Origin: an uncultured Candidatus Saccharibacteria bacterium
GTDB lineage: Bacteria > Patescibacteriota > Minisyncoccia > Phycocordibacterales > UBA9973
Direction: 5' to 3'
Assembly (NCBI GenBank): GCA_964626965.1
Contig: CAZVHB010000001.1
Coordinates: forward strand, 1,818 to 65,817
Length of the DNA: 64,000 nucleotides
The notes below the pieces were generated by a model, which did no database searches, was not told the origin of the DNA, and saw only the letters and a list, made by a program, of their open reading frames with translations. Position numbers and translations under genes: made by a program. Position 1 is the stretch's first letter. Each line of letters opens with the position of its first letter. Of the stretch, positions 68 through 63,772 are shown piece after piece.

Positions 68-183
68 TGTCATTCCGGATGAGGTGAATTGCGAAGCAAG
101 AGAGTATACCCTGGGGTACTTGATCCGGAATCTAGGACTATTCATTTCAAAACTCTGGATTCCGGATCGAGTCCGGAATGACA
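68..183. repeat. Palindromic two-hairpin repeat element (MITE/REP-like), copy A (116 bp with an internal ~37-bp insertion)
   Basis: TGTCATTCCGGA...TCCGGAATGACA terminal inverted repeats. Each arm is itself a hairpin (attccgga-N5-tccggaat). Same family as 2998-3074, 52041-52117 and 63621-63696. Confidence 0.8.
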
Positions 184-2997: not shown

Positions 2998-3074
2998 TGT
3001 CATACCGGACTTGATCCGGTATCCAGGATTATATATTGCACAGGTCTGGATTCCGGATCAAGTCCGGAATGACA
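2998..3074. repeat. Palindromic two-hairpin repeat element, copy B (77 bp)
   Basis: tgtcataccggacttgatccggtatccagga...ctggattccggatcaagtccggaatgaca, sitting in a convergent intergenic region. Confidence 0.8.
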
Positions 3075-3830: not shown

Positions 3831-4781
3831 ATGAAAAAGATAATTCTTTTGGCGATAATCGCCTCGACCATTTTTTCTTTACCAACGTTTGCTCAGCAAA
3901 CGTACATCGCAACTGATGTAAACGGTAAGCGGATTGATTCTGTAATTTATTACAGCTTAGAATCAGCGCAAGCTGCGGCTAATGCGTATGACTTACGTCA
4001 AAAACAACAATTAACACAAACGTTCACGGCGAAAGACGAGAACGGAAATGTAATTGGAGTGTATGCTTCTCAGCTAGAGGCACAAAATGCTACTAACGCA
4101 GATTACATGAGGAGGCATCCAGCTCCTGCACAAGGTAACACAAATCAACAGCCTGCTGAAGATCCATATCTTACTCGAAAAAAAGCTCTTGATTTACAAA
4201 AGGATCAAGAAACAGTTAAAGCTTTGAAGTTGCAAAACGCTAATTCCAAAATCACTATTTTAAACAATGGTATTACTACTGTTGGAAATGGTGTGGGGAC
4301 TGGTGTTTACATTGGTCAACAGCTTGGTCTGATTGGAAATGGTGGTGGACGAGCACAGTTCAATCGCTGTCGCTATTGCAATGTTACCTATGTTGGCACT
4401 CAGCATGTATGTAATCAAAGTGGTGTTGGTGGTGTAATGCCTCCTAACAGTGGTTACAATGGTAGTTATTGCCAAGGGTGTCGCCAGACTTATTATGGCG
4501 GTAATCATTCTTGTGGTACTACTGGTTTCGGCCAGCAAACACAAGGTTGCTTTTGTACTTATTATCAAGGGCAAGGATATGTTCCTAACCAATATGGTAC
4601 GGGTACATGGTGTACTTGGAGAATGAATAGTAATGGCTCCGGGTATGGTTGGTTTCCATCAACCCAACAAGGTGGTTGTGGTAATCAATATGGTGACGGG
4701 ATGTTTCATACACCAATCATCAATCGCTTTGATAATGGAGGACCTGTTCCAGGTGCTCAATATGGTGTTCGCATTTATTAA
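3831..4781 (+). CDS. Secreted Cys/Gly/Tyr-rich protein (signal peptide ...TFAQQ)
   Basis: N-terminal signal peptide. C-terminal half has 16 Cys in CxxC/CxC-like spacing and G/Y/N-rich low complexity. Confidence 0.7.
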   Translation: MKKIILLAIIASTIFSLPTFAQQTYIATDVNGKRIDSVIYYSLESAQAAANAYDLRQKQQLTQTFTAKDENGNVIGVYASQLEAQNATNADYMRRHPAPAQGNTNQQPAEDPYLTRKKALDLQKDQETVKALKLQNANSKITILNNGITTVGNGVGTGVYIGQQLGLIGNGGGRAQFNRCRYCNVTYVGTQHVCNQSGVGGVMPPNSGYNGSYCQGCRQTYYGGNHSCGTTGFGQQTQGCFCTYYQGQGYVPNQYGTGTWCTWRMNSNGSGYGWFPSTQQGGCGNQYGDGMFHTPIINRFDNGGPVPGAQYGVRIY

Positions 4782-6085: not shown

Positions 6086-8959
6086 ATGAAAAACATATTT
6101 ACAAAAATTAGTTCAAAAGCATACATAGGCGCACTTGCGCTCTTTTTGGCTTTTGGTCTTACAAGCCAAGCATATGCTGGCGCAGTTGCATGGGCAGGTC
6201 CAACAGAGTTTGGTACTATCGCTAATGTTACCGGAACATCAATCGTCGAAAGTAGTCCTTATACACCATTTTCTTATGCAAATACATCTTCTGCGTCTGC
6301 AGGTGATAAAGTTGCGGTTATTGTGTATTTCCACAATAAAGGAAATGCTGCATCTCCAAACACATATATTAAAGTAAATAAATCAACCAACGGCTCTGCC
6401 TCTACGTTTACATTTACTGGTTCTGTGTCTGGTGGTGGAGCTTCAAAATCTGGCTCAACAACAGTGAACCTTTCTTCTAGTCAAACACTCACGTATATCC
6501 CAGGATCACTACGCGTTAGTAAAGACCGTGCTCCAGTAGGGTACTCAGTATCAAATGATACAGACGTTTTTTCAGGTGCTGGTCTTGATATTGGGATGGT
6601 ACAAGGAATGGATACTTGCGGAACAGACGCACTCTGTCACCAAGGTTCTGTTGCACTTGGATTTCAAGTAAGTTCAACTTCTACAACTCATCTTTGTTCA
6701 AATGGACAAGATGATGACGGAGATCTCCTTATCGATATGAATGACCCAGGATGTACTGACCCAACTGATGATAATGAATACAATCTTGTATCACCACTTG
6801 TGTGTACAATCAATTCTTTCACTGGATCACCTTTGACTGTTGCTTCTGGTGGATATACAAATCTTTCATGGAACACAACAAACTGTACAACTGTTACTGT
6901 TGATGGATTTACCTATCCTGTCGATGGTAGTGGAAATTTTGGCCCACTCTTTGTCGGTAAAACATACTATCTTGCTGCTTCAAACGGAACTAGTACTGAC
7001 TCAGAAACAGTCTATGTTGGTGTAAATACTGTTGCTTCAGCATGTACAATTGATACATACTATGCATCACCAACTACAGTAACTTCAGGTGGATATACAA
7101 CAATTTATTGGAATACATCAAACTGTACGACTGTTACTATCGATGGTATGCCTCAGTCAGTAGACGGAAGTAATTCTTTTGGTCCGATCTATTCTGGTAA
7201 AACATACAACATTGTTGCGTCAAACAGTACAAGTACTGATTCAGATAGTCTCTACGTTGGAACAAATTCTGTAAATAACTGTACGATTGATAATTTCTAC
7301 GCATCACCATCTACTGTTTCTTCAGGGAACTACACAACACTTCATTGGAATACATCAAACTGTGACCAAGTGACGATCGACGGTATTACTTATTATTCTG
7401 TTGATGGAAGTGGATCTTTTGGACCACTCTACAGTGGACGAAGTTACCAAATCCAAGCATGGAAAACTAGTCAATCTCCAGTTTCTCAAACAACATACGT
7501 ATCAGTTGATACATACTCTTCAAACAACTGTAGTATCGATACTTTTTATGCATCACCTACAACAGTAATCTCAGGTAGTACTACTCAACTCTTTTGGAAT
7601 ACATCAAACTGCGACCAGGTTACTGTTGATGGTATTAATTATGGTGTTGATGGAAGTGGTTATTTCGGCCCACTCTATAGTGGACGAAGTTACGTGCTCA
7701 ATGCGTGGAAAAATGGTCAAACTGTACGTACACAAACAGTCTATGTTGGTGTAAATTCTGTCAATAATTCATCTTACGCATGTAATGATGGGTATGATAA
7801 TGATGGTGACGGACGTGTAGACTATCCAAATGACGCTGGTTGTTACTCATCAACTGATAACGATGAATACAACTATGTTGCACCAGCTGTTTTGAATACT
7901 GTTGTGACAACACTCAACCCAAGTAATCTTACATCTTCTTCTGCACGTTTGAATGGATCTATCTTCAATGGTGGAAATAATGCAACTCAGTTTTATTTTG
8001 AATGGGGAACAGATACAAATTCTCTTCCAAACAAAACAAATTCACAAACAACCTTTTCAGATAATTCAGTAACGTACTTTGATACTGCATACAATCTTTC
8101 AACTGGTGTTACCTATTACTATCGTGCAGTTGCACAAAAAAGTAATGGAGTGGTCATCCGTGGCGATATTAGACAATTTCGCTTGATTGAAGTGGTAACT
8201 CCTGTATTTACAAATACAGTGACACGAGTAGTTACGGTGCCAGCTCCAGTAGTACAAGAGAGAGGAGTAGTTGTCGGACTTGGAACAAATCTTGTACAGC
8301 TTCGATATATTACGAATGATATCCTTAGTACAAATACTGGTGGTTTTGGAATCACTCAAACTGGTATCAATCAAAATGTAAACAATGGTGTACAAAATGT
8401 CTGTGTTGATGACAGTATTAAATTTGTTGTTGAATACAGAAATATCTCAACAATTACACTTAATAATGCAATCCTTCATATTGATATTCCAAAAGATGTC
8501 GACTTCCGAAGTTCATCAGCCGGAGTATTTAATAAAGCAGACAATACTATCACTATCAATGTAGGAACACTCACTCCTGGTCAATCAGGTCAAGTATCTT
8601 TCGACGGAATTGTTATGAGTAGTGCAGCAAATCGAGATCTTCTCGTTGTCCCAGCAACACTCTCATTTGAAAATCCAAACAATGGTGCTCGAGAAACAGC
8701 GATTGCGTACGGACTCGCAACGACTCAAAACTGTATTAAAAATGGGGGACTTGCCGGATTCGCATTCGGTTCAGGATTCTTTCCAGATACACTCTTTGGA
8801 TGGTTGCTCTTAATTCTCGTACTCCTCGCTCTGATTTACCTTCTTCGAAGAATGTTTATGGTGTATGGAATCGGACCAAGATCAAAGACCACAACCACAA
8901 CGACTACACAAAGACATTACGAGGATATGGATATTCCAACAGCGCCATACCAACACTAA
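6086..8959 (+). CDS. Large cell-surface protein (957 aa): signal peptide, 4 tandem ~80-aa repeats flanked by Asp-rich CxxGxDxDGDG motifs, a fibronectin-III-like domain, a DUF11-like domain and a C-terminal TM anchor
   Basis: Repeats CTIDxFYASPxTVxSGxYTxLxWNTSNC..VT.DG..Y.VDGSG.FGP.YSG. Also NATQFYFEWGTD (fn3-like), TPGQSGQVSFDGIV (DUF11-like) and a C-terminal GSGFFPDTLFGWLLLILVLLALIYLLRR. Confidence 0.75.
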   Translation: MKNIFTKISSKAYIGALALFLAFGLTSQAYAGAVAWAGPTEFGTIANVTGTSIVESSPYTPFSYANTSSASAGDKVAVIVYFHNKGNAASPNTYIKVNKSTNGSASTFTFTGSVSGGGASKSGSTTVNLSSSQTLTYIPGSLRVSKDRAPVGYSVSNDTDVFSGAGLDIGMVQGMDTCGTDALCHQGSVALGFQVSSTSTTHLCSNGQDDDGDLLIDMNDPGCTDPTDDNEYNLVSPLVCTINSFTGSPLTVASGGYTNLSWNTTNCTTVTVDGFTYPVDGSGNFGPLFVGKTYYLAASNGTSTDSETVYVGVNTVASACTIDTYYASPTTVTSGGYTTIYWNTSNCTTVTIDGMPQSVDGSNSFGPIYSGKTYNIVASNSTSTDSDSLYVGTNSVNNCTIDNFYASPSTVSSGNYTTLHWNTSNCDQVTIDGITYYSVDGSGSFGPLYSGRSYQIQAWKTSQSPVSQTTYVSVDTYSSNNCSIDTFYASPTTVISGSTTQLFWNTSNCDQVTVDGINYGVDGSGYFGPLYSGRSYVLNAWKNGQTVRTQTVYVGVNSVNNSSYACNDGYDNDGDGRVDYPNDAGCYSSTDNDEYNYVAPAVLNTVVTTLNPSNLTSSSARLNGSIFNGGNNATQFYFEWGTDTNSLPNKTNSQTTFSDNSVTYFDTAYNLSTGVTYYYRAVAQKSNGVVIRGDIRQFRLIEVVTPVFTNTVTRVVTVPAPVVQERGVVVGLGTNLVQLRYITNDILSTNTGGFGITQTGINQNVNNGVQNVCVDDSIKFVVEYRNISTITLNNAILHIDIPKDVDFRSSSAGVFNKADNTITINVGTLTPGQSGQVSFDGIVMSSAANRDLLVVPATLSFENPNNGARETAIAYGLATTQNCIKNGGLAGFAFGSGFFPDTLFGWLLLILVLLALIYLLRRMFMVYGIGPRSKTTTTTTTQRHYEDMDIPTAPYQH
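6803..7774 (+). repeat. Four tandem ~240-bp (79-83 aa) intragenic repeats
   Basis: Each repeat starts with a TGT (Cys) codon, at 6803, 7043, 7280 and 7529. Confidence 0.8.
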
Positions 8960-13013: not shown

Positions 13014-13487
13014 ATGAAAAAATCTCAAAAAGGTTTTACACTCATCGAACTTTTGATTGTTATCGCAATCATCGGTGTACTCGCAGCTGTTCTTATTCCT
13101 AACTTGCTCGCAGCTCGTAACAAAGGAGTAGACGCAGCTATTAAAGCTAACCTTGCTGCTACAAAATCTCAAGCAACATTGTTCTACGAAACATCACAAG
13201 TATTTACTGGTGTGTGTGCAACTGGATCTTCAACAGCTATCGGTGATATGGTTCTCAGTGCAGCACAAAAACTCTCTGGAGCTAACACTGTAACTGCTGC
13301 TACATGGGCGTACTCTTCAACTGGTGCGGCTAACTCTGCTGTGTGTCATGATAACGCTACAGCATGGGCAGCGATGGTATCTCTCAAGAACCCATCAACT
13401 ACATCTGGTGGATGGTGTGTTGACTCAACTGGTGCTACAAAAGAAACAGCTACTGCACTCGCAGCTGGTATTGCTGTTTGTCCATAA
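13014..13487 (+). CDS. Type IV pilin (major pilin paralog 1)
   Basis: Class III signal MKKSQKG/FTLIELLIVIAIIGVLAAV with a C-terminal Cys-Cys disulfide loop. Confidence 0.9.
   Translation: MKKSQKGFTLIELLIVIAIIGVLAAVLIPNLLAARNKGVDAAIKANLAATKSQATLFYETSQVFTGVCATGSSTAIGDMVLSAAQKLSGANTVTAATWAYSSTGAANSAVCHDNATAWAAMVSLKNPSTTSGGWCVDSTGATKETATALAAGIAVCP
13028..13158 (+). repeat. 131-bp segment identical to 13640-13770 (conserved 5' part of two pilin genes)
   Basis: Exact nucleotide identity across the prepilin N-terminal helix coding region. Confidence 0.9.
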
Positions 13488-13505
13488 GGAATTTATATTC
13501 TTTAC

Positions 13506-13537
13506 AAAAAAAACACCCAATCGGGTGTTTTTTTGTG
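13506..13537 (+). terminator. Rho-independent terminator
   Basis: aaaaaaaacaccc-aatc-gggtgttttttt. Confidence 0.8.
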
Positions 13538-13582
13538 TAAAAGGAGCTTGTGCTTTAAAAAAGCAAGATGTATACTGTTCTT

Positions 13583-14098
13583 ATGAAGATTTATATAAAA
13601 CATAAAGAAAAATTCGCGAGGGAAAGTATTATAAATAGTAAAGGTTTTACACTCATCGAACTTTTGATTGTTATCGCAATCATCGGTGTACTCGCAGCTG
13701 TTCTTATTCCTAACTTGCTCGCAGCTCGTAACAAAGGAGTAGACGCAGCTATTAAAGCTAACCTTGCTGGTATACGTTCAGAAGATATTTTATATTATGA
13801 AAATAACAACTCTTCTTTTTTAAACATCTGTACTACGTCAGTTACCGGTCTCGCTGACCAACTTGATAGTGCCGCAAAAAAGCTCTCTGGTTCTAATACT
13901 GTTGGTGGTTCAGCTCAAGCTTTTACCTACTCTGCAACTGGTGGTACTGGTTCTGCTGTGTGTCATGACTCTGCTACGGGTTGGGCTGCGGTTGTGTCGC
14001 TCAAGAACCCATCAACTGCATCTAGTGGATGGTGTATTGATTCCGTGGGTGTTTCAAAAGAAGTTACTACACTCGGAGCTAATATACGTGCTTGTTAA
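13583..14098 (+). CDS. Type IV pilin (paralog 2)
   Basis: Same N-terminus as paralog 1, variable middle, conserved C-terminal CHD...W..VSLKNPST...GWC. TGTATACT-N6-ATG at 13583. Confidence 0.85.
   Translation: MKIYIKHKEKFARESIINSKGFTLIELLIVIAIIGVLAAVLIPNLLAARNKGVDAAIKANLAGIRSEDILYYENNNSSFLNICTTSVTGLADQLDSAAKKLSGSNTVGGSAQAFTYSATGGTGSAVCHDSATGWAAVVSLKNPSTASSGWCIDSVGVSKEVTTLGANIRAC
13640..13770 (+). repeat. Second copy of the 131-bp identical pilin 5' segment
   Basis: Identical to 13028-13158. Confidence 0.9.
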
Positions 14099-14109
14099 TC
14101 AATTATTTT

Positions 14110-14156
14110 CCTCACTACAAAAAAACACCCGATTGGGTGTTTTTTTGTAGTGAGGA
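14110..14156 (+). terminator. Rho-independent terminator (extended stem)
   Basis: cctcactacaaaaaaacacccgattgggtgtttttttgtagtgagg. The core hairpin is the reverse complement of the one at 13506. Confidence 0.8.
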
Positions 14157-14223
14157 AACACGCTATGTGAATATCTTCTGTTTACTTCTTTCTTTTTTAA
14201 AAGTATCTGGGTATACTATACGT

Positions 14224-14700
14224 ATGAAAAAAATATATAAATCTCAAAAAGGTTTTACACTCATCGAACTTTTGATTGTTATTGCAATTATTAGTGTTAT
14301 TGCCTCTGTGCTTATTCCAAACGTCATGGCTGCGCGAGACAAAGGAACAACCGCTGCGCAAAGAGCCGAAGTAAAAACAGTACAAACAGAAGCAGTTGTT
14401 TTATGGGAAGCTAATAGTGGTAATCTTACCACTGTGTGTACTAACAGTACTGGGGCTCCTCGTACAGCACTCTTGAGCGCCCTGAAAAAGGGCTATCCAA
14501 ATGGTCAAATTGGAATTTTGGCGAACTCCATAGCATCGAGTTCTGGTAACGGTGCTGGTGTGTGCCACAGTACGGCATCTGCATACGGGGCAGAAATACC
14601 TCTTAAGTCTGGTGGATTTTTGTGTATGGATTCTACTGGTTTAGTGGTAGAATCTCTGACGACAAAAATTGGAACAGTGAATGATACATCTTGTTTATAA
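14224..14700 (+). CDS. Type IV pilin (paralog 3, divergent)
   Basis: MKKIYKSQKG/FTLIELLIVIAIISVIASV. GGTATACT-N6-ATG. Confidence 0.85.
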   Translation: MKKIYKSQKGFTLIELLIVIAIISVIASVLIPNVMAARDKGTTAAQRAEVKTVQTEAVVLWEANSGNLTTVCTNSTGAPRTALLSALKKGYPNGQIGILANSIASSSGNGAGVCHSTASAYGAEIPLKSGGFLCMDSTGLVVESLTTKIGTVNDTSCL

Positions 14701-25233: not shown

Positions 25234-25307
25234 GCCCATCGACTTCGATTCATAAGCCCTTGCGAAAGTGAGGGTTTTTTTATTACCCAAAATAGAGTAT
25301 AGTGTGT

Positions 25308-25632
25308 GGGTTGCACAGATACACGCGCTCTGCCTTAAAACAGAGTGAGGAAAGTCCGAACACACCTACAGCAATGTAGAGAATGGTAGTGGGTAATACC
25401 CATCCGTAGTAATACGCGTGGTGCGAGCAGTGACGCCAATGTCGAAAGGCTAGGCATCCTTCGGGATGATGCCTCTCGAGAGAGAGGAGTGAAACGGCTA
25501 AATCCGTACTTGTGTGCAAGATCGCGTCTGAGATAGAAATATCGAGGAAGAATCGCTTGAGGTAGATAGTAATGTCTATCCTAGATAAATGTGTATACTA
25601 GACAGAATTCGGCTTATCGTGTGACGTTATAA
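25308..25632 (+). ncRNA. rnpB: RNase P RNA (bacterial type, reduced)
   Basis: P4 5' strand GAGGAAAGUCCGAAC and P4 3' strand ACAGAAUUCGGCUUA with the expected single-nucleotide bulge. TATAGT lies upstream and a terminator follows. The ends are approximate. Confidence 0.65.
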
Positions 25633-27292: not shown

Positions 27293-28087
27293 ATGTATAT
27301 GAGTTGGGCAACAGCGCGTCAAGCAAAAGTTATTTTTTCTATACTATTTCTTCTTGTAGGTATTGCAGGTGCGATTTTTCTTTCTGCTTCTGTGAAAAAA
27401 CCAACATGTTTTGACGGGAAAAAAAATGGAGTAGAAGACGGAGTTGATTGTGGTGGTGGATGTTCACTTCAATGTAAAGAATATACTCAAGATGTTGTGG
27501 TGAAATGGCAACGGTCTTATCAAATTACAAAAGGATTTTATAATGCGGTTGCATATGTTGAAAATCAAAATTTTCAAGCAGGAGTACGGAGCGTTCATTA
27601 TAAATTCCGGCTGTATGATGCAGACCGTATTCTGTTGACTGAGCGTGATGGAGAAACTTTTCTTGAACCAAATAAAGCAGTTGTTGTATTTGAACAACAA
27701 ATTCCTGTAGGTAACGCTATTCCGGCATATACAACATTTCAGTTTACTGATGCGATTTCTTGGATCAAAACTGATGCTCGGTACAATGAAATGATTATTG
27801 CGCCATCTGAACAAGTATTTGATGAGAAAGATATCAAACCTCGTTTTTCTACTGTGCTCAAAAATGTCTCTGAAAAATACACCATTTCAAATATTGATGT
27901 GTATGTTGTTGCGTATGATGATGTCGGGAATGCTATTCAGGTTGGAAAGACGCTTATTAAAGAGCTTCCACCTCGTGCGAAAAAAAATGTATTCGTTATT
28001 TGGCAAAATAAATTTGATGTGAAACCGACTCGATTTGAAATAATTCCACGATATAATCCATTTACTCAAGAGTATCCAACCAAATAG
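27293..28087 (+). CDS. Hypothetical membrane-anchored protein
   Basis: N-terminal TM helix and a CFDGKKNGVEDGVDCGGGC motif. The start is 27281, 27293 or 27299. Confidence 0.5.
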   Translation: MYMSWATARQAKVIFSILFLLVGIAGAIFLSASVKKPTCFDGKKNGVEDGVDCGGGCSLQCKEYTQDVVVKWQRSYQITKGFYNAVAYVENQNFQAGVRSVHYKFRLYDADRILLTERDGETFLEPNKAVVVFEQQIPVGNAIPAYTTFQFTDAISWIKTDARYNEMIIAPSEQVFDEKDIKPRFSTVLKNVSEKYTISNIDVYVVAYDDVGNAIQVGKTLIKELPPRAKKNVFVIWQNKFDVKPTRFEIIPRYNPFTQEYPTK

Positions 28088-44401: not shown

Positions 44402-44530
44402 ATGGCAGCTAAAAAAGCAAAAAAGAAAGTAGCTAAGAAAGCAGTTAAGAAAACTGTAAAAAAAGTAGCTAAGAAAGCAGTTAAGAAAACTGTAAAGAAA
44501 GCAACAAAGAAGGTAGCGAAGAAAAGATAG
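44402..44530 (+). CDS. 42-aa Lys/Ala-rich basic protein (histone H1-like / Hc-like nucleoid protein). It is not in the ORF track because it is shorter than 60 aa.
   Basis: MAAKKAKKKVAKKAVKKTVKKVAKKAVKKTVKKATKKVAKKR. It contains an internal 36-nt tandem duplication and has its own terminator. The 82-aa minus-strand ORF 44321-44569 is its antisense shadow. Confidence 0.6.
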   Translation: MAAKKAKKKVAKKAVKKTVKKVAKKAVKKTVKKATKKVAKKR

Positions 44531-50443: not shown

Positions 50444-52033
50444 ATGCAAGAAAAAATAAAAAAATTTTTAGGAAAAACGAAAAAAACAACTACCACCACT
50501 CTTAAAACTGTAAGTGATACAACTGAACAAAAATTTCCTAAGGTGTATGCATATATGTTTAAGCATAAGAAAAAATTGTACTGGATTGTTCCAGTAGTTT
50601 TATTGCTTGGGTATTTTGTTTTTAAGCCAAAAAGTATTGACCTAAATACGATTACAGTTGTTCCTGTCGAGACTAAAACTCTCACCTCTACTGTGAAGGC
50701 GAGTGGTAAGGTAACATCACAAGTTGATCTAGAGCTTTCATTTAAGAAATCTGACCTCGTGGACTCTGTACTTGTTTCCGTTGGTCAAACAGTCAAAAAA
50801 GGTCAAATTCTCGCAACACTCAAAAATCAAACTGAGCTCGGTGGTGTGATTCAAGCACGTGGGTCATTAGCTAGAGTTCTCGAAGGTGCGAGTACTGAAG
50901 AGGAACGCGTTGCAGAAGTTTTGTTGGAGAATGCACAAAAGGATCTAGTAAATACAAAAAGACAACAAGAAAAAAATATTGAAAATGCATATCGTACACT
51001 TTTGTCATCGAGCTTACAAGCAATACCTAATACATCTCTCTATTTTGCAACAGTTTCTAATCCAGCAGTGCTTGGAACATACACAGGTTCACAAGAAGGA
51101 ACGTACCGTATTGAGGTATATACTTCAAGTGGTGGGTATGGATTTTATGTAACAGGATTAAACACCACGAGTGGGTCAGTATCTGCTACAAGCCCAACTC
51201 TAATTGGGCACGGTCTATCTTTACAATTTCCAACAGATTTCAATCTTGGTTCAAATAGTGTGTGGAATATCACTGTTCCAAATAAAAATGGGGCTCTGTA
51301 TACCACAAATCTCAATACGTATGAATCAGTAAAGACAACAGCTGAAAGTCTTATCTCGTCAGCTCAATCTATTGTCTCTCAGAGAGAAGCAGAACTTGCA
51401 TTAAAGAAAGCAAAACCAAGAAACGGAGATGTTCTTACTGCTGAAGGTCAGCTACAAAATGCTCTTGGTATTTACGAGGGTACTGTTATCCGTGCTCCAG
51501 CTGATGGTGTTGTGACTAAAGTCTCGATTAAACCAGGAGAGTTAGCAAAAGCGCTAGAGTCAAGTATTGTGATTCAGGATGTATCAAAACTCTATGTAGA
51601 GGCAAATATCAATGAGTCAAACATTACGACTATTCTTGCAGGGCAACCAGTGAGTTTTACTATTGATGCATTTGGTTCAACCCGTGTTTTCTCAGGAACG
51701 GTGATTCAAGTTGACCTAGCACCAACAGTTGCTGATGGTATCGTAAACTATGTGGTTCGAGCATCACTTGATGATACTGATCCACTGATTAAATCAGGAA
51801 TGAACGCAAATCTTACCATTACTACAGGTACAAAAGAGAACGTCCTTGCTATCCCTGGTGCAAGTATTACAAAAGTAGATGATCAGCAAATAGTAAAGAA
51901 AATCACCGATGTAAAGAAAAAGAAGTTTGTAGAAGTTTCCGTGTCTACTGGAATTATGGGTGATGGGAATATGACTGAGATTACGAGCGGACTTACTACT
52001 GGTGATAGTGTTGCACTTATTGAAGCTAAATAG
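50444..52033 (+). CDS. HlyD/MacA-family periplasmic adaptor (membrane fusion protein) with a long inserted domain
   Basis: N-terminal TM helix; biotinyl/lipoyl-like GQTVKKGQILATL; C-terminal beta-barrel GTVIRAPADGVVTKV. TGCTAGTAT-N6-ATG. Confidence 0.7.
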   Translation: MQEKIKKFLGKTKKTTTTTLKTVSDTTEQKFPKVYAYMFKHKKKLYWIVPVVLLLGYFVFKPKSIDLNTITVVPVETKTLTSTVKASGKVTSQVDLELSFKKSDLVDSVLVSVGQTVKKGQILATLKNQTELGGVIQARGSLARVLEGASTEEERVAEVLLENAQKDLVNTKRQQEKNIENAYRTLLSSSLQAIPNTSLYFATVSNPAVLGTYTGSQEGTYRIEVYTSSGGYGFYVTGLNTTSGSVSATSPTLIGHGLSLQFPTDFNLGSNSVWNITVPNKNGALYTTNLNTYESVKTTAESLISSAQSIVSQREAELALKKAKPRNGDVLTAEGQLQNALGIYEGTVIRAPADGVVTKVSIKPGELAKALESSIVIQDVSKLYVEANINESNITTILAGQPVSFTIDAFGSTRVFSGTVIQVDLAPTVADGIVNYVVRASLDDTDPLIKSGMNANLTITTGTKENVLAIPGASITKVDDQQIVKKITDVKKKKFVEVSVSTGIMGDGNMTEITSGLTTGDSVALIEAK

Positions 52034-52040
52034 AAATGAT

Positions 52041-52117
52041 TGTCATTCCGGACTTGATCCGGAATCTAGGACTACCTATACTATACATCTGGATCCTGAA
52101 TCGAGTTCAGGATGACA
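52041..52117. repeat. Palindromic two-hairpin repeat element, copy C (77 bp), sitting inside the transporter operon spacer
   Basis: The left arm is canonical. The right arm carries compensatory changes (atcctgaa-tcgag-ttcaggat) that preserve the hairpin. Confidence 0.8.
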
Positions 52118-52131
52118 CCATAAATTACAAA

Positions 52132-53436
52132 ATGACCACACATACACATCATCTTACAAATAAAGAATTACTCAAAAAAGAAAATTCGTTTTCTTTAAAT
52201 CTCCGTGTTGGTTGGTTTTTAGCAAAACGTGATATCAAGCGTGCAAATATTTGGACAACATTACTCATTGTGATGGTGATGATGTTTACTTTTTTGAACC
52301 TTGTCGTCGTCTCTGGTATTTTAGTCGGGCTCATTGAAGGATCAGAGAATTCAGCTCGTGAATATGGTACAGGAGATGTTGTTATTTCGTCATTTTTAAA
52401 TAAATCAAATATAGAAAACACTCCTGAAGTTATAGATATTGTCAAAACACTTCCTGGGTATGAGTCACACACCGTAAGATACACTGCAAGTGCACGTATT
52501 GAATCTGACTACCGTTCGACGGTCAAACCGGGTGAATTACGAAATGGTGCCGGAGGCGTACTTTCAGGTATTGATCCAGTCCAAGAAGAAAAGTTTTCTG
52601 GGTATTCTAAATTTATCATGCGTGGTGAACCACTTACTTCTACTGATTTTGATAGTGTGCTCATCGGTAAAAATTTACTGTACGAATTTACCCCCATCGA
52701 AGCTCCAGGATTCCAGACTCTCAAAAATGTGGAGATAGGTGACAAAGTGAAAGTGACGGTTGGTAAAAACAGTAAAGAATATTTTGTTAAAGGGATTTTA
52801 AAATCCAAAGTTGATGAATTTGATAGTACTATTTTAGCTGTTGATAGTGAAGTCCGTAAATTAACAGGCGCAAATGATTTGAATGCTGACGGCATCTCTA
52901 TCAAGCTTAAAGATGGATATACTGATCTGAGTGCTAAACAGTTTTTGGTAAATAGTGGTGTTGGTGAATGGGCTCGAATTCAAACGTTCGAAGAGGCGAT
53001 TCCTAAATTCTTAAAAGATATTAAAGGTACTTTTGCAATCCTTGGAAATGCTATTTCGGGTATTGGGCTCATCGTTGCATGTATCACCATCTTCATCGTG
53101 ATTTTTGTTAATGCGATTACGCGTCGTCGGTTTATTGGAATCTTGAAGGGGATTGGTATCAATCGCCGAGCGATACTGTATTCATATATGATGCAGGCGA
53201 TTATTTATGCTTTGTTTGGTATTGCGATTGGTATGTTTTTAACTTTTACTCTCATTAAGCCGAGTATCGCTGCTCATCCAATCGATTTTCCGTTCTCTGA
53301 TGGTATTCTTGTTGCGACTGTTCCTGGTACAATACAGCGTGCAATTATATTACTCATTGCGACCATTATTGCTGGGTATATTCCAGCGCGGATTGTGGTC
53401 AAGCAAAATACATTAAGTGCAATTTTAGGAAGATAA
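52132..53436 (+). CDS. ABC transporter permease, FtsX/MacB family
   Basis: Four TM helices with a large periplasmic loop; C-terminal FtsX motifs GIGINRRAIL. Start at the ATG at 52132 (the ORF track extends upstream across the repeat). Confidence 0.8.
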   Translation: MTTHTHHLTNKELLKKENSFSLNLRVGWFLAKRDIKRANIWTTLLIVMVMMFTFLNLVVVSGILVGLIEGSENSAREYGTGDVVISSFLNKSNIENTPEVIDIVKTLPGYESHTVRYTASARIESDYRSTVKPGELRNGAGGVLSGIDPVQEEKFSGYSKFIMRGEPLTSTDFDSVLIGKNLLYEFTPIEAPGFQTLKNVEIGDKVKVTVGKNSKEYFVKGILKSKVDEFDSTILAVDSEVRKLTGANDLNADGISIKLKDGYTDLSAKQFLVNSGVGEWARIQTFEEAIPKFLKDIKGTFAILGNAISGIGLIVACITIFIVIFVNAITRRRFIGILKGIGINRRAILYSYMMQAIIYALFGIAIGMFLTFTLIKPSIAAHPIDFPFSDGILVATVPGTIQRAIILLIATIIAGYIPARIVVKQNTLSAILGR

Positions 53437-53441
53437 ATAAT

Positions 53442-54119
53442 ATGATACAAGTAAAAGATTTAAGAAAAGTTTTTAAAAGTGGAGATAGTGAGATTGTGGC
53501 GCTCAAGGATTTGACCTTCTCAGTCCCGAAAGGGCAGTTTTTGACCATAACAGGAAAGTCAGGTAGTGGAAAATCGACACTCTTATACCAATTGAGTCTT
53601 CTTGATACTCCAACTGCGGGATCGATTAAAATTGAGAATCAAGAAATGATTGGTCTGTCTGAAAATGAACGAACACAAATTCGTCTTAATAATCTCGGAT
53701 ATATTTTTCAAGACTATGCGATTATTCCAACGCTTACTGCACTTGAAAATACAATGGTCCCACTTCTTCAGCAAGGGTATTCTGAAAAAGAAGCAAAAGA
53801 TATTGCGATAAGTGCACTCGGTAAAGTCGAGATGCTTAATCGCCTTGATAATCTCCCGAGTGCACTATCGGGCGGACAACAACAGCGTGTCGCTATTGCG
53901 CGTGCTATAGCACATAAACCAAAAATTATTTTTGCTGATGAACCTACTGCAAACCTCGACTCTGAAACATCCGACCAAGTCATTAAGACGTTTTTGGAAT
54001 TGAGTAAAGAAGGGCAGACCATTATTATGGTGACGCACGAACCAGAGTATGCAAAGCTCTCTGATCGGACAATTTTCCTCGTTGACGGAGCTCTTGTAAG
54101 TGATATAAATAATAAGTAG
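53442..54119 (+). CDS. ABC transporter ATP-binding protein (MacB/LolD-like)
   Basis: Walker A GKSGSGKST; signature LSGGQQQRVAIARA; Walker B IIFADEPT. Confidence 0.9.
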   Translation: MIQVKDLRKVFKSGDSEIVALKDLTFSVPKGQFLTITGKSGSGKSTLLYQLSLLDTPTAGSIKIENQEMIGLSENERTQIRLNNLGYIFQDYAIIPTLTALENTMVPLLQQGYSEKEAKDIAISALGKVEMLNRLDNLPSALSGGQQQRVAIARAIAHKPKIIFADEPTANLDSETSDQVIKTFLELSKEGQTIIMVTHEPEYAKLSDRTIFLVDGALVSDINNK

Positions 54120-59338: not shown

Positions 59339-59425
59339 CGGAAGAGGGGAGATTCGAACTCCCGGTGCGGTTTCCCGCACGCCACCTTTCCAAGGTGGTA
59401 CATTAAACCGCTCTGCCACCCTTCC
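59339..59425 (-). tRNA. tRNA-Ser (anticodon GGA), type II with a long variable arm; CCA is not encoded
   Basis: RNA sequence GGAAGGGUGGCAGAGCGGUUUAAUGUACCACCUUGGAAAGGUGG...GGGAGUUCGAAUCUCCCCUCUUCCG. Anticodon loop UUGGAAA, T-loop GTTCGAATC. TATAGC lies 7 nt upstream. Confidence 0.85.
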
Positions 59426-62909: not shown

Positions 62910-63599
62910 ATGGCTCTAGTTAAAACAAAAAAAGAAATAGAAAACATACAAACTGCGTGTCAGATTACCGACGAGATTTTTAAAGAGGTGATTGTGTATG
63001 TGAAAAAAAATCGAGCGTGTACTGAGATTGAATTACAAAAATATATTTTACAACTCATAAAAAACAGAAATCTTCGCCCAAGTTTTCCGCCGATTGTGAC
63101 TTCGGGTTTCCGAGCAGGGAACGACATTCACCCAAAACCGACTGATAAAAAACTTGCCGGATTTACTATTATTGATCTCGGTGTTCGGTATAACGGATTT
63201 TGTTCTGATATGACTCGTACTATCTATGTAGGTGGACCAACAGAAAAAGAAAAAGAACTGTATCAAAAAATACTTGATGTGCAGTTGCTCGGTATCAAGC
63301 TTTCTCAGTCTGATGTGCGTTGTAGTGATATTGATGCGTCTGTGCGTTCATCACTTGATTCGCTTAAGAAATATTTTATTCATACCCTCGGACACGGTGT
63401 CGGACGAAAAATTCACGAAGCACCGATTATCTATGAAAAACGTACTAAGCCAGTTTTGAAAGATGCTATGGTGATTACTATTGAACCAGGTATCTATATC
63501 AAAAACAAGCTCGGAATAAGGATAGAAGATACGATTGTGGTCCAAGGTAAGAAACCGCTCATTTTGACTAAAACAACTAAAAAATTAATTTCTCTATAA
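62910..63599 (+). CDS. M24-family metallopeptidase (Xaa-Pro aminopeptidase / methionine aminopeptidase fold), catalytic domain only
   Basis: DLGVRYNGFCSDMTRT; HTLGHGVGRKIHE; MVITIEPGIY...GIRIEDTIVV. Confidence 0.8.
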   Translation: MALVKTKKEIENIQTACQITDEIFKEVIVYVKKNRACTEIELQKYILQLIKNRNLRPSFPPIVTSGFRAGNDIHPKPTDKKLAGFTIIDLGVRYNGFCSDMTRTIYVGGPTEKEKELYQKILDVQLLGIKLSQSDVRCSDIDASVRSSLDSLKKYFIHTLGHGVGRKIHEAPIIYEKRTKPVLKDAMVITIEPGIYIKNKLGIRIEDTIVVQGKKPLILTKTTKKLISL

Positions 63600-63620
63600 T
63601 ACGCACAACCTCACTTGTTG

Positions 63621-63696
63621 TGTCATTCCGGACTTGATCCGGAATCTAGAGTTTTGGAATGATCCATCCTGGATTCCGGATCAAGTCCGGAATGAC
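63621..63696. repeat. Palindromic two-hairpin repeat element, copy D (76 bp)
   Basis: tgtcattccggacttgatccggaatctaga...ctggattccggatcaagtccggaatgaca. Confidence 0.8.
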
Positions 63697-63772
63697 AATG
63701 CGGGCACATAACCCTTTCACAAAATATCGTATTTGTTATACTGTAATTGTATTAGTTTAATTATTACATTTC

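Follow-up and report, generated by a model that had tools for sequence, protein, structure and literature searches.

Several kinds of short bacterial palindromic repeat bear on the element described here. REPINs are intergenic, multi-copy repeats in which two short palindromes stand in inverted orientation on either side of a short spacer, and REP sequences typically have GTAG as their 5' flank. In the malEFG operon of Escherichia coli, the REP sequences between malE and malF act as mRNA stabilisers that shape relative expression. MITEs, such as the Correia elements of Neisseria, and the palindromic elements of Rickettsia are short, non-coding sequences with terminal inverted repeats, which show presence/absence polymorphism and may lie in frame with a gene.

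The closest described system is that of the Ssn nucleases. Chenal et al. (Nat Commun 2025, PMC11893778) reported that the Neisseria NTS, CGTCATTCCCGCGMAVGCGGGAATCYRG, extends the older dRS3 repeat, and that NTS-like 'Ssn-related motifs' (SRM) are present in many phyla. SsnA, a 94-residue single-domain GIY-YIG nuclease, binds the motif as single-stranded DNA, not as duplex or RNA, and cuts a few nucleotides upstream of the hairpin (PMC11893778). In N. meningitidis, cutting depends above all on the three bases 5' of the palindrome, and binding above all on the C that follows it; SsnA is indifferent to which bases form the loop and tolerates loop extensions, and an altered stem sequence abolished SsnA activity even with the hairpin kept (PMC11893778). 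Copies of the motif often lie on both sides of the ssn genes, whose single-domain GIY-YIG products are of the cd10448 type (PMC11893778).

Here we compare these systems with element C, a hairpin doublet inside a transporter operon, within a 64-kb window (the whole stretch of DNA that was analysed) and across other bacterial genomes. On balance we favour the reading that element C is an Ssn-related-motif (SRM/NTS-like) hairpin doublet, derived from a cassette that has lost its gene and inserted in this lineage; we regard this as the probable explanation overall. The compensatory changes in its right arm, which a first-pass annotation had linked to a possible processing or attenuation site within the operon, would then belong to a pan-bacterial DNA hairpin repeat and not to an operon regulator, and a misannotation is avoided.

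Structure of element C

Element C is an inverted doublet of two hairpin arms (Table 1). Its 77-nt sequence (52041-52117) is TGTCATTCCGGACTTGATCCGGAATCTAG - GACTACCTATACTATACAT - CTGGATCCTGAATCGAGTTCAGGATGACA, which reads by segment as TGTCAT-TCCGGA-CTTGA-TCCGGA-ATCTAG, the 19-nt spacer and CTGGAT-CCTGAA-TCGAG-TTCAGG-ATGACA. A single arm follows the plan GTC, 8-bp stem, 5-nt loop and C. The arms of the doublet face outward, so that each DNA strand carries one arm in the readable orientation.

Table 1. Coordinates of element C, of the other copies in the window and of the surrounding transporter genes.
Feature	Position	Strand	Score	Description
Element C	52041..52117	.		Inverted doublet of two hairpin arms (29 + 19 + 29 nt)
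C left arm hairpin	52042..52066	+	47.5 bits, E 1.7e-11	GTC-ATTCCGGA-CTTGA-TCCGGAAT-C, canonical stem
C spacer	52070..52088	.		19 nt, 53% identity to the spacers of copies A and B
C right arm hairpin	52092..52116	-	45.5 bits, E 6.4e-11	GTC-ATCCTGAA-CTCGA-TTCAGGAT-C, three compensated pairs relative to canonical
Copy A	68..183	.		Left hairpin split by a 39-nt loop insertion (80-118); right arm canonical, loop TCGAG
Copy B	2998..3074	.		Left arm with a compensated T-A to A-T swap (ATACCGGA/TCCGGTAT)
Copy D	63621..63697	.		Both arms canonical
HlyD-type membrane fusion protein (MFP) gene	50444..52033	+		Upstream of C
FtsX-like permease gene	52132..53436	+		Start set by alignment with relatives
ABC transporter ATPase gene	53442..54119	+

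The right arm of element C reads CCTGAA-TCGAG-TTCAGG, compared with TCCGGA-TCAAG-TCCGGA in the remaining arms. Three base pairs are swapped on both sides, all by transitions, and the loop carries one further change. The 8-bp stem is left intact, as the first-pass annotation had recognised in describing these changes as mirrored. The probability that six transitions among 12 stem positions fall as three complete pairs is ~0.02. Each arm on its own folds into an 8-bp hairpin, and the entire element has a folding energy of -16.2 kcal/mol (z = -4.4 relative to shuffles). The two arms of C no longer match one another and its single-stranded fold consists of two separate hairpins; copies B and D have one long 29-bp hairpin as an alternative fold. 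A promoter-like TTGATC-17-TATACT lies inside C (52054-52082) and faces the permease; it does not exceed shuffle expectation, and the other copies have no -10 box.

Four copies in the window

All four doublets in the 64 kb are intergenic: A and B lie between convergent gene ends, and D lies in a promoter region. The core motif has six matches in the window, compared with 0.03 expected. A covariance model of the arm recovered exactly seven intact window arms at 44-48 bits (E <= 2e-10), with everything else at 12.3 bits or below, and all seven (7/7) carry GTC on the 5' side and C on the 3' side. In copy A, the 8-bp stem halves of the left hairpin are intact on either side of the loop insertion. 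The stem swap in the left arm of copy B is independent of the changes in the right arm of C.

The arms of the four copies have a mean identity of 89%. Their spacers are uniformly 19 nt long and 53-74% identical, with D reversed (74% between A and the reverse complement of D). Equal-length, related spacers together with the arm identity point to common ancestry of the four copies as whole elements. No consistent target-site duplication was found at A-D, where flanks are neither shared nor duplicated, the only possible instance being an AAATGA repeat at C.

A hairpin family spread across bacteria

We scanned one genome per species for the 21-mer ATTCCGGACTYGATCCGGAAT, a pattern that leaves the flanks outside the search. 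The exact 21-mer occurs in at least 120 stretches, from Patescibacteria, Dehalococcoidia, Rickettsiales, sphingomonads, Bacteroidota, Ignavibacteriota, Nitrospirota, Campylobacterota and others. Among the matches listed, GTC stands directly 5' in 125/128 and C directly 3' in 126/128; the flanks are conserved across this pan-bacterial range. An inverted partner hairpin lies within 130 nt of 62 of these 128 matches, compared with none in shuffles, and the partners of the matches listed show 34 different stems. CCTGAA/TTCAGG, the stem of the right arm of C, is the second commonest among them (7/62), and the combination of a TCCGGA with a CCTGAA arm recurs, for example in L008, L069 and L119. The first-pass annotation had treated this arm as diverged from the family consensus, a description that holds against the other window copies but not as a private oddity, since the stem is common in the family.

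In their 835 kb, the listed loci contain 304 hairpins with the layout GTC, 8-bp stem, loop, stem and C, compared with 20 in shuffles. Only 32% of family hairpins in these loci fall inside long open frames, though such frames cover 82% of the bases. Adjacent hairpins in the listed loci are mostly outward-facing (85, with 15 inward and 15 tandem), and the two arms have different stems in 83/85 of the outward doublets (L001-L120). Copy C therefore represents the normal state, and it is A and D, with identical stems, that are unusual. The same hairpin is found on 11 viral-classed IMG/VR contigs (L130-L140), with same-strand arrays of six to seven copies in L133 and L137; no GIY-YIG homologue was found on these 11 contigs. 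A literature search for the exact hairpin sequences returned no paper that prints them.

Covariation of the stems

We analysed covariation in partner arms picked by GAT-N17-ATGAC only, a pattern that specifies the flanks and the outer two pairs and places no constraint on the six inner pairs. In 28 such arms from other genomes, 162/168 inner-stem cells are paired, and one stem position shows four pair types. In a 35-arm alignment, 97.9% of cells are paired, compared with 85.3% in shuffles, and 46 cells are changed on both sides where 14 are expected, a count reached by 0/500 shuffles. Sliding the partner columns of this alignment by 1-3 lowers pairing to 17-48%, and single-sided changes of the G-U type account for only 3 cells as against the 46 double-sided ones. 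Divergence without complementarity, which would have spoken against a structural constraint, was not seen in either set. Across the family, the hairpin structure rather than the sequence is what has been preserved, as had been proposed from the single case of C. The mirrored substitutions in the right arm of C would reflect this family-wide need for an arm to fold as a hairpin, with CCTGAA/TTCAGG probably one of a small set of stems reused throughout the family. An asymmetry between G-T and A-C mismatches (34 and 21), considered as a test of RNA or DNA or of strand, is not decisive, as the set includes chance hits.

The covariation also bears on two alternatives. As each arm is a perfect 8-N5-8 palindrome, it could be read as the site of a dimeric transcription factor on double-stranded DNA, with element C as an operator. 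A reader of duplex DNA would conserve the bases, yet the stems covary, and the sites occur in gene contexts of every kind, which makes an operator scarcely credible.

The second alternative concerns how the arm changed and not what the element is: the right arm may have been replaced mechanically, with no selection acting on C, through template switching within the quasi-palindrome or gene conversion from another CCTGAA-type hairpin in the genome, or C may retain an ancestral two-stem state while A, B and D were homogenised. The frequency of the CCTGAA stem and its recurrent combination with TCCGGA would suit such an origin, as would the prevalence of stem-mismatched doublets and the confinement of all six changes to one arm. 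The spacer of C, however, has the same length as those of A and B and is related to them, which argues that the element descended as a unit; each of the three swaps is a transition and could have passed through a G-T intermediate; and pairing of 96-98% over ~100 stems needs long-term maintenance, not a single event. We therefore consider mechanical replacement unlikely.

Insertion into the transporter operon

Element C occupies most of the gap between the MFP and permease genes. The MFP stop codon, TAG, lies at 52031-52033 and the homologue-aligned permease ATG at 52132, which leaves the gap of 98 nt given by the first-pass annotation. The three transporter genes are co-oriented with tiny gaps.

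The same junction lacks element C in L122, L123, L124, L125 and L127, relatives whose permeases are 94% (L122) to 68% identical at the amino-acid level. In these five genomes the distance from stop to start is 0-6 nt, with the junction forms TAAgtattcATG, TAATG and TAAaaATG. The sister genome GCA_964565825.1 (L144) also lacks C and instead holds an unrelated 118-nt structured insertion (7877-7994), bounded by a 13-nt inverted repeat, TCCCGTTAGAAGT...ACTTCTAACGGGA, that is absent from the window. The sister junction had been considered as an orthologous copy of C from which the direction of change might be read, and was set aside for this reason. With C in the window and an unrelated insertion in the sister, the junction appears to have been hit twice by different palindromic elements. 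As judged from these six relatives, element C is a lineage-specific insertion rather than a built-in part of the operon, and most likely a recent one.

Insertion polymorphism was observed for a second copy, element D, which is filled in L141/L144 (sister) and empty in L142/L143. Element D with its flanks (63594-63718) is 100% identical to the sister over 125 nt, and no perfect run in the 13.4-kb alignment (80% identity) is longer. We rejected this identity as a decisive sign of selection, since the alignment also contains perfect runs of 110, 109, 108 (a tRNA) and 95 nt in a mosaic pattern; selection, recombination or recent exchange, or assembly could each account for it.

In this polymorphism at the C and D sites, and in an in-frame ORF that runs through C, the element resembles MITEs. 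It differs from them in the lack of a target-site duplication, in its self-folding, covarying arms and in a spread over phyla wider than that of any single MITE family. The ORF begins at an ATG at 52036, 2 nt past the MFP stop, and continues without a stop for 32 codons (MIVIPDLIRNLGLPILYIWILNRVQDDTINYK) across C and in frame into the permease (52036-52131). A 32-residue permease extension of this kind is present in none of the best 120 homologues (419-432 aa). The joint chance of an in-frame length without a stop through C is ~0.04, a rough estimate that is only suggestive.

Shine-Dalgarno motifs are almost absent from the genome (1/45 starts in the window), and many ATGs lie ~7 nt after a TGnTATAAT-like box (for example 45438, 48068, 50444, 6086, 37271, 25754 and 60623), an arrangement that suggests widespread leaderless mRNAs. 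Two repeat families of the window, D8 and D9, are such TGnTATAAT-box promoter regions. From the scarcity of Shine-Dalgarno motifs and the box-proximal starts, we infer that internal cistrons probably depend on stop-start coupling. The insertion of C may accordingly illustrate how a Shine-Dalgarno-poor genome tolerates a 98-nt insert between coupled genes, namely by reading through from the in-frame ATG.

The first-pass annotation had suggested an intra-operon processing or attenuation site. As an RNA-level element of this kind, the two hairpins in the polycistronic mRNA would process, attenuate or stabilise the transcript and so set the ratio of MFP to permease. Co-oriented genes, tiny gaps and the terminator scan, which returned no terminator-like site at element C, indicate that C is probably transcribed; each arm would form a stable 8-bp hairpin, and where Shine-Dalgarno motifs are so rare a structured insert of this size should matter for translation of the permease. 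The absence of C from the orthologous junction of six relatives nevertheless speaks against a dedicated site, as do the other settings of the element, which is found between convergent gene ends (A and B), in a promoter region (D) and in unrelated contexts in many phyla. A symmetric doublet, moreover, gives a transcript no polarity. Attenuation also fits poorly with the lack of a terminator-like site, and Rfam, searched at gathering threshold and at permissive E-values, gave nothing relevant to element C (best matches, miRNA models at E 0.3-7), while the conserved flanks agree with the positions that govern cleavage and binding by a nuclease of single-stranded DNA, which reportedly does not bind RNA. 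A repeated palindrome between co-transcribed genes, with a possible side effect on expression, recalls the malE-malF REP of E. coli; the insertion of C differs in being lineage-specific and absent from orthologous operons. An RNA-level function is in our judgement improbable, and an incidental effect of C on operon mRNA or translation is possible.

Comparison with the Ssn system and with REPINs

The hairpins share several features with the NTS. The NTS and the arm TGTCATTCCGGACTTGATCCGGAATCTAG have in common GTCAT, the ATTCC...GGAAT stem base, the C after the palindrome and a YRG tail. Both systems consist of hairpins of ~25-28 nt with oriented flanks (GTCAT on the 5' side and ATC(Y)(R)G on the 3' side), and both are multi-copy, mostly intergenic and distributed across phyla; in loci of other genomes, small GIY-YIG genes are bracketed by outward copies here too. 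By contrast, the stem-loop here is TCCGGA-CTTGA-TCCGGA rather than CCCGCG-MAV-CGCGGG, the arms form a fixed inverted doublet with a 19-nt spacer, the host is of Patescibacteria type and the window holds no ssn gene. The published SRM string, HGTCWYN(0-2)YYVSBRHN(0-5)WNVSBRGN(0-2)RNCYNB, has no match in the window or in either arm of C, whereas the NTS control matches. This string is an operational search tool and not a functional definition, and as it fails on these arms, the present stem type would have been missed by the published search.

GIY-YIG cassettes were observed elsewhere in the family. Small GIY-YIG proteins (PF01541) are encoded in 3/120 listed loci. In one of these, L109 (Parcubacteria GW2011_GWC1_45_14), a 100-aa GIY-YIG ORF (4103-4402; PF01541 E 1.5e-17) is flanked by outward hairpins at 4069-4093 (+) and 4414-4437 (-), and the GIY-YIG gene of L090 is bracketed by hairpins in the same manner. 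The canonical TCCGGA arm is also present in the genome of L109, in L109 itself and in L061. In the window, no GIY-YIG gene was found by regular expression, by tblastn with two GIY-YIG ORFs or by Pfam on 34 ORFs (24 of them for this purpose). The best tblastn match, 27869-28060 (E 0.056), was rejected because it lies within an ORF that has no nuclease domain.

An inverted palindrome doublet with a short spacer, intergenic and multi-copy, could also describe a REP/REPIN-type repeat mobilised by a RAYT (an IS200/IS605-like Y1 transposase) and not linked to GIY-YIG. As in REPINs and REP-BIMEs, the arms are better conserved than the spacer, and copies of the repeat flank an associated nuclease gene. 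That gene, however, is GIY-YIG in both cassettes seen (L109 and L090), not a Y1 HUH transposase; no Y1 transposase was found among the window ORFs scanned; the two arms usually have different stems; and the conserved bases on the 5' side are GTCA, where REPs typically have GTAG. We consider a RAYT-mobilised repeat very unlikely.

A model for the origin and action of the element

The preferred reading, an Ssn-related-motif doublet, can be set out as a model based on the findings in Neisseria. Replication, repair or DNA uptake would expose a strand in single-stranded form, and the arm it carries would then fold. A small single-domain GIY-YIG nuclease (Ssn) would bind the folded arm and nick a few nucleotides 5' of GTC, that is, just outside the doublet. 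By analogy, this organism would possess an Ssn enzyme that recognises these arms, and single-stranded DNA would be the level of action. The polarity of the doublet is the same as that of the hairpin-ssn-hairpin cassettes, so that the doublet looks like an empty cassette. Element C is most simply taken as a derivative of this kind of cassette, without a gene of its own and non-autonomous, that entered the tight MFP-permease junction in this lineage only.

Some findings count against this reading. The window has no detected GIY-YIG gene, the published SRM string does not match, and the copies bear no target-site duplication that would point to a mechanism of insertion. Because a change of stem abolishes SsnA activity in N. 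meningitidis, one enzyme may not read both the TCCGGA and the CCTGAA stem; at least five different stems occur in one Parcubacteria genome, which a model with a single specificity leaves unexplained.

The results extend the Ssn/SRM system by a stem type that the published string misses, by occurrence in Patescibacteria, by a doublet with cassette polarity and by two comparisons of filled with empty sites, and such sites make the mobility of Ssn cassettes a testable question. A bolder proposal, which we hold to be possible though doubtful, is that the hairpin doublets are miniature, gene-less hairpin-ssn-hairpin cassettes mobilised in trans by a GIY-YIG single-strand nuclease. If so, Ssn cassettes would constitute a class of bacterial insertion sequence, based on a GIY-YIG nuclease, that has so far gone unrecognised, and their non-autonomous derivatives would have spread over most phyla of bacteria and into the reduced genomes of Patescibacteria as well. 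The rule that the arms of a doublet differ in stem would then itself belong to the mechanism, perhaps to provide distinct left and right ends or to avoid long perfect palindromes.

Other features of the window

Three tandem paralogous ORFs with N-terminal methylation (pilin-like) motifs lie at 13014-14700, each followed by a near-identical terminator-like hairpin (13507-13536 and 14119-14148); these may bear on DNA uptake. A Lys/Ala-rich coding repeat with a 12-nt period (GCAGCTAAAAAAGCAAAAAAGAAAGTAGCTAAGAAA...) occupies 44405-44524. Structured RNAs at 25307-25632 and 59339-59425 comprise a bacterial RNase P RNA of class A (100.6 bits, gathering score 100) and one tRNA, on the minus strand.
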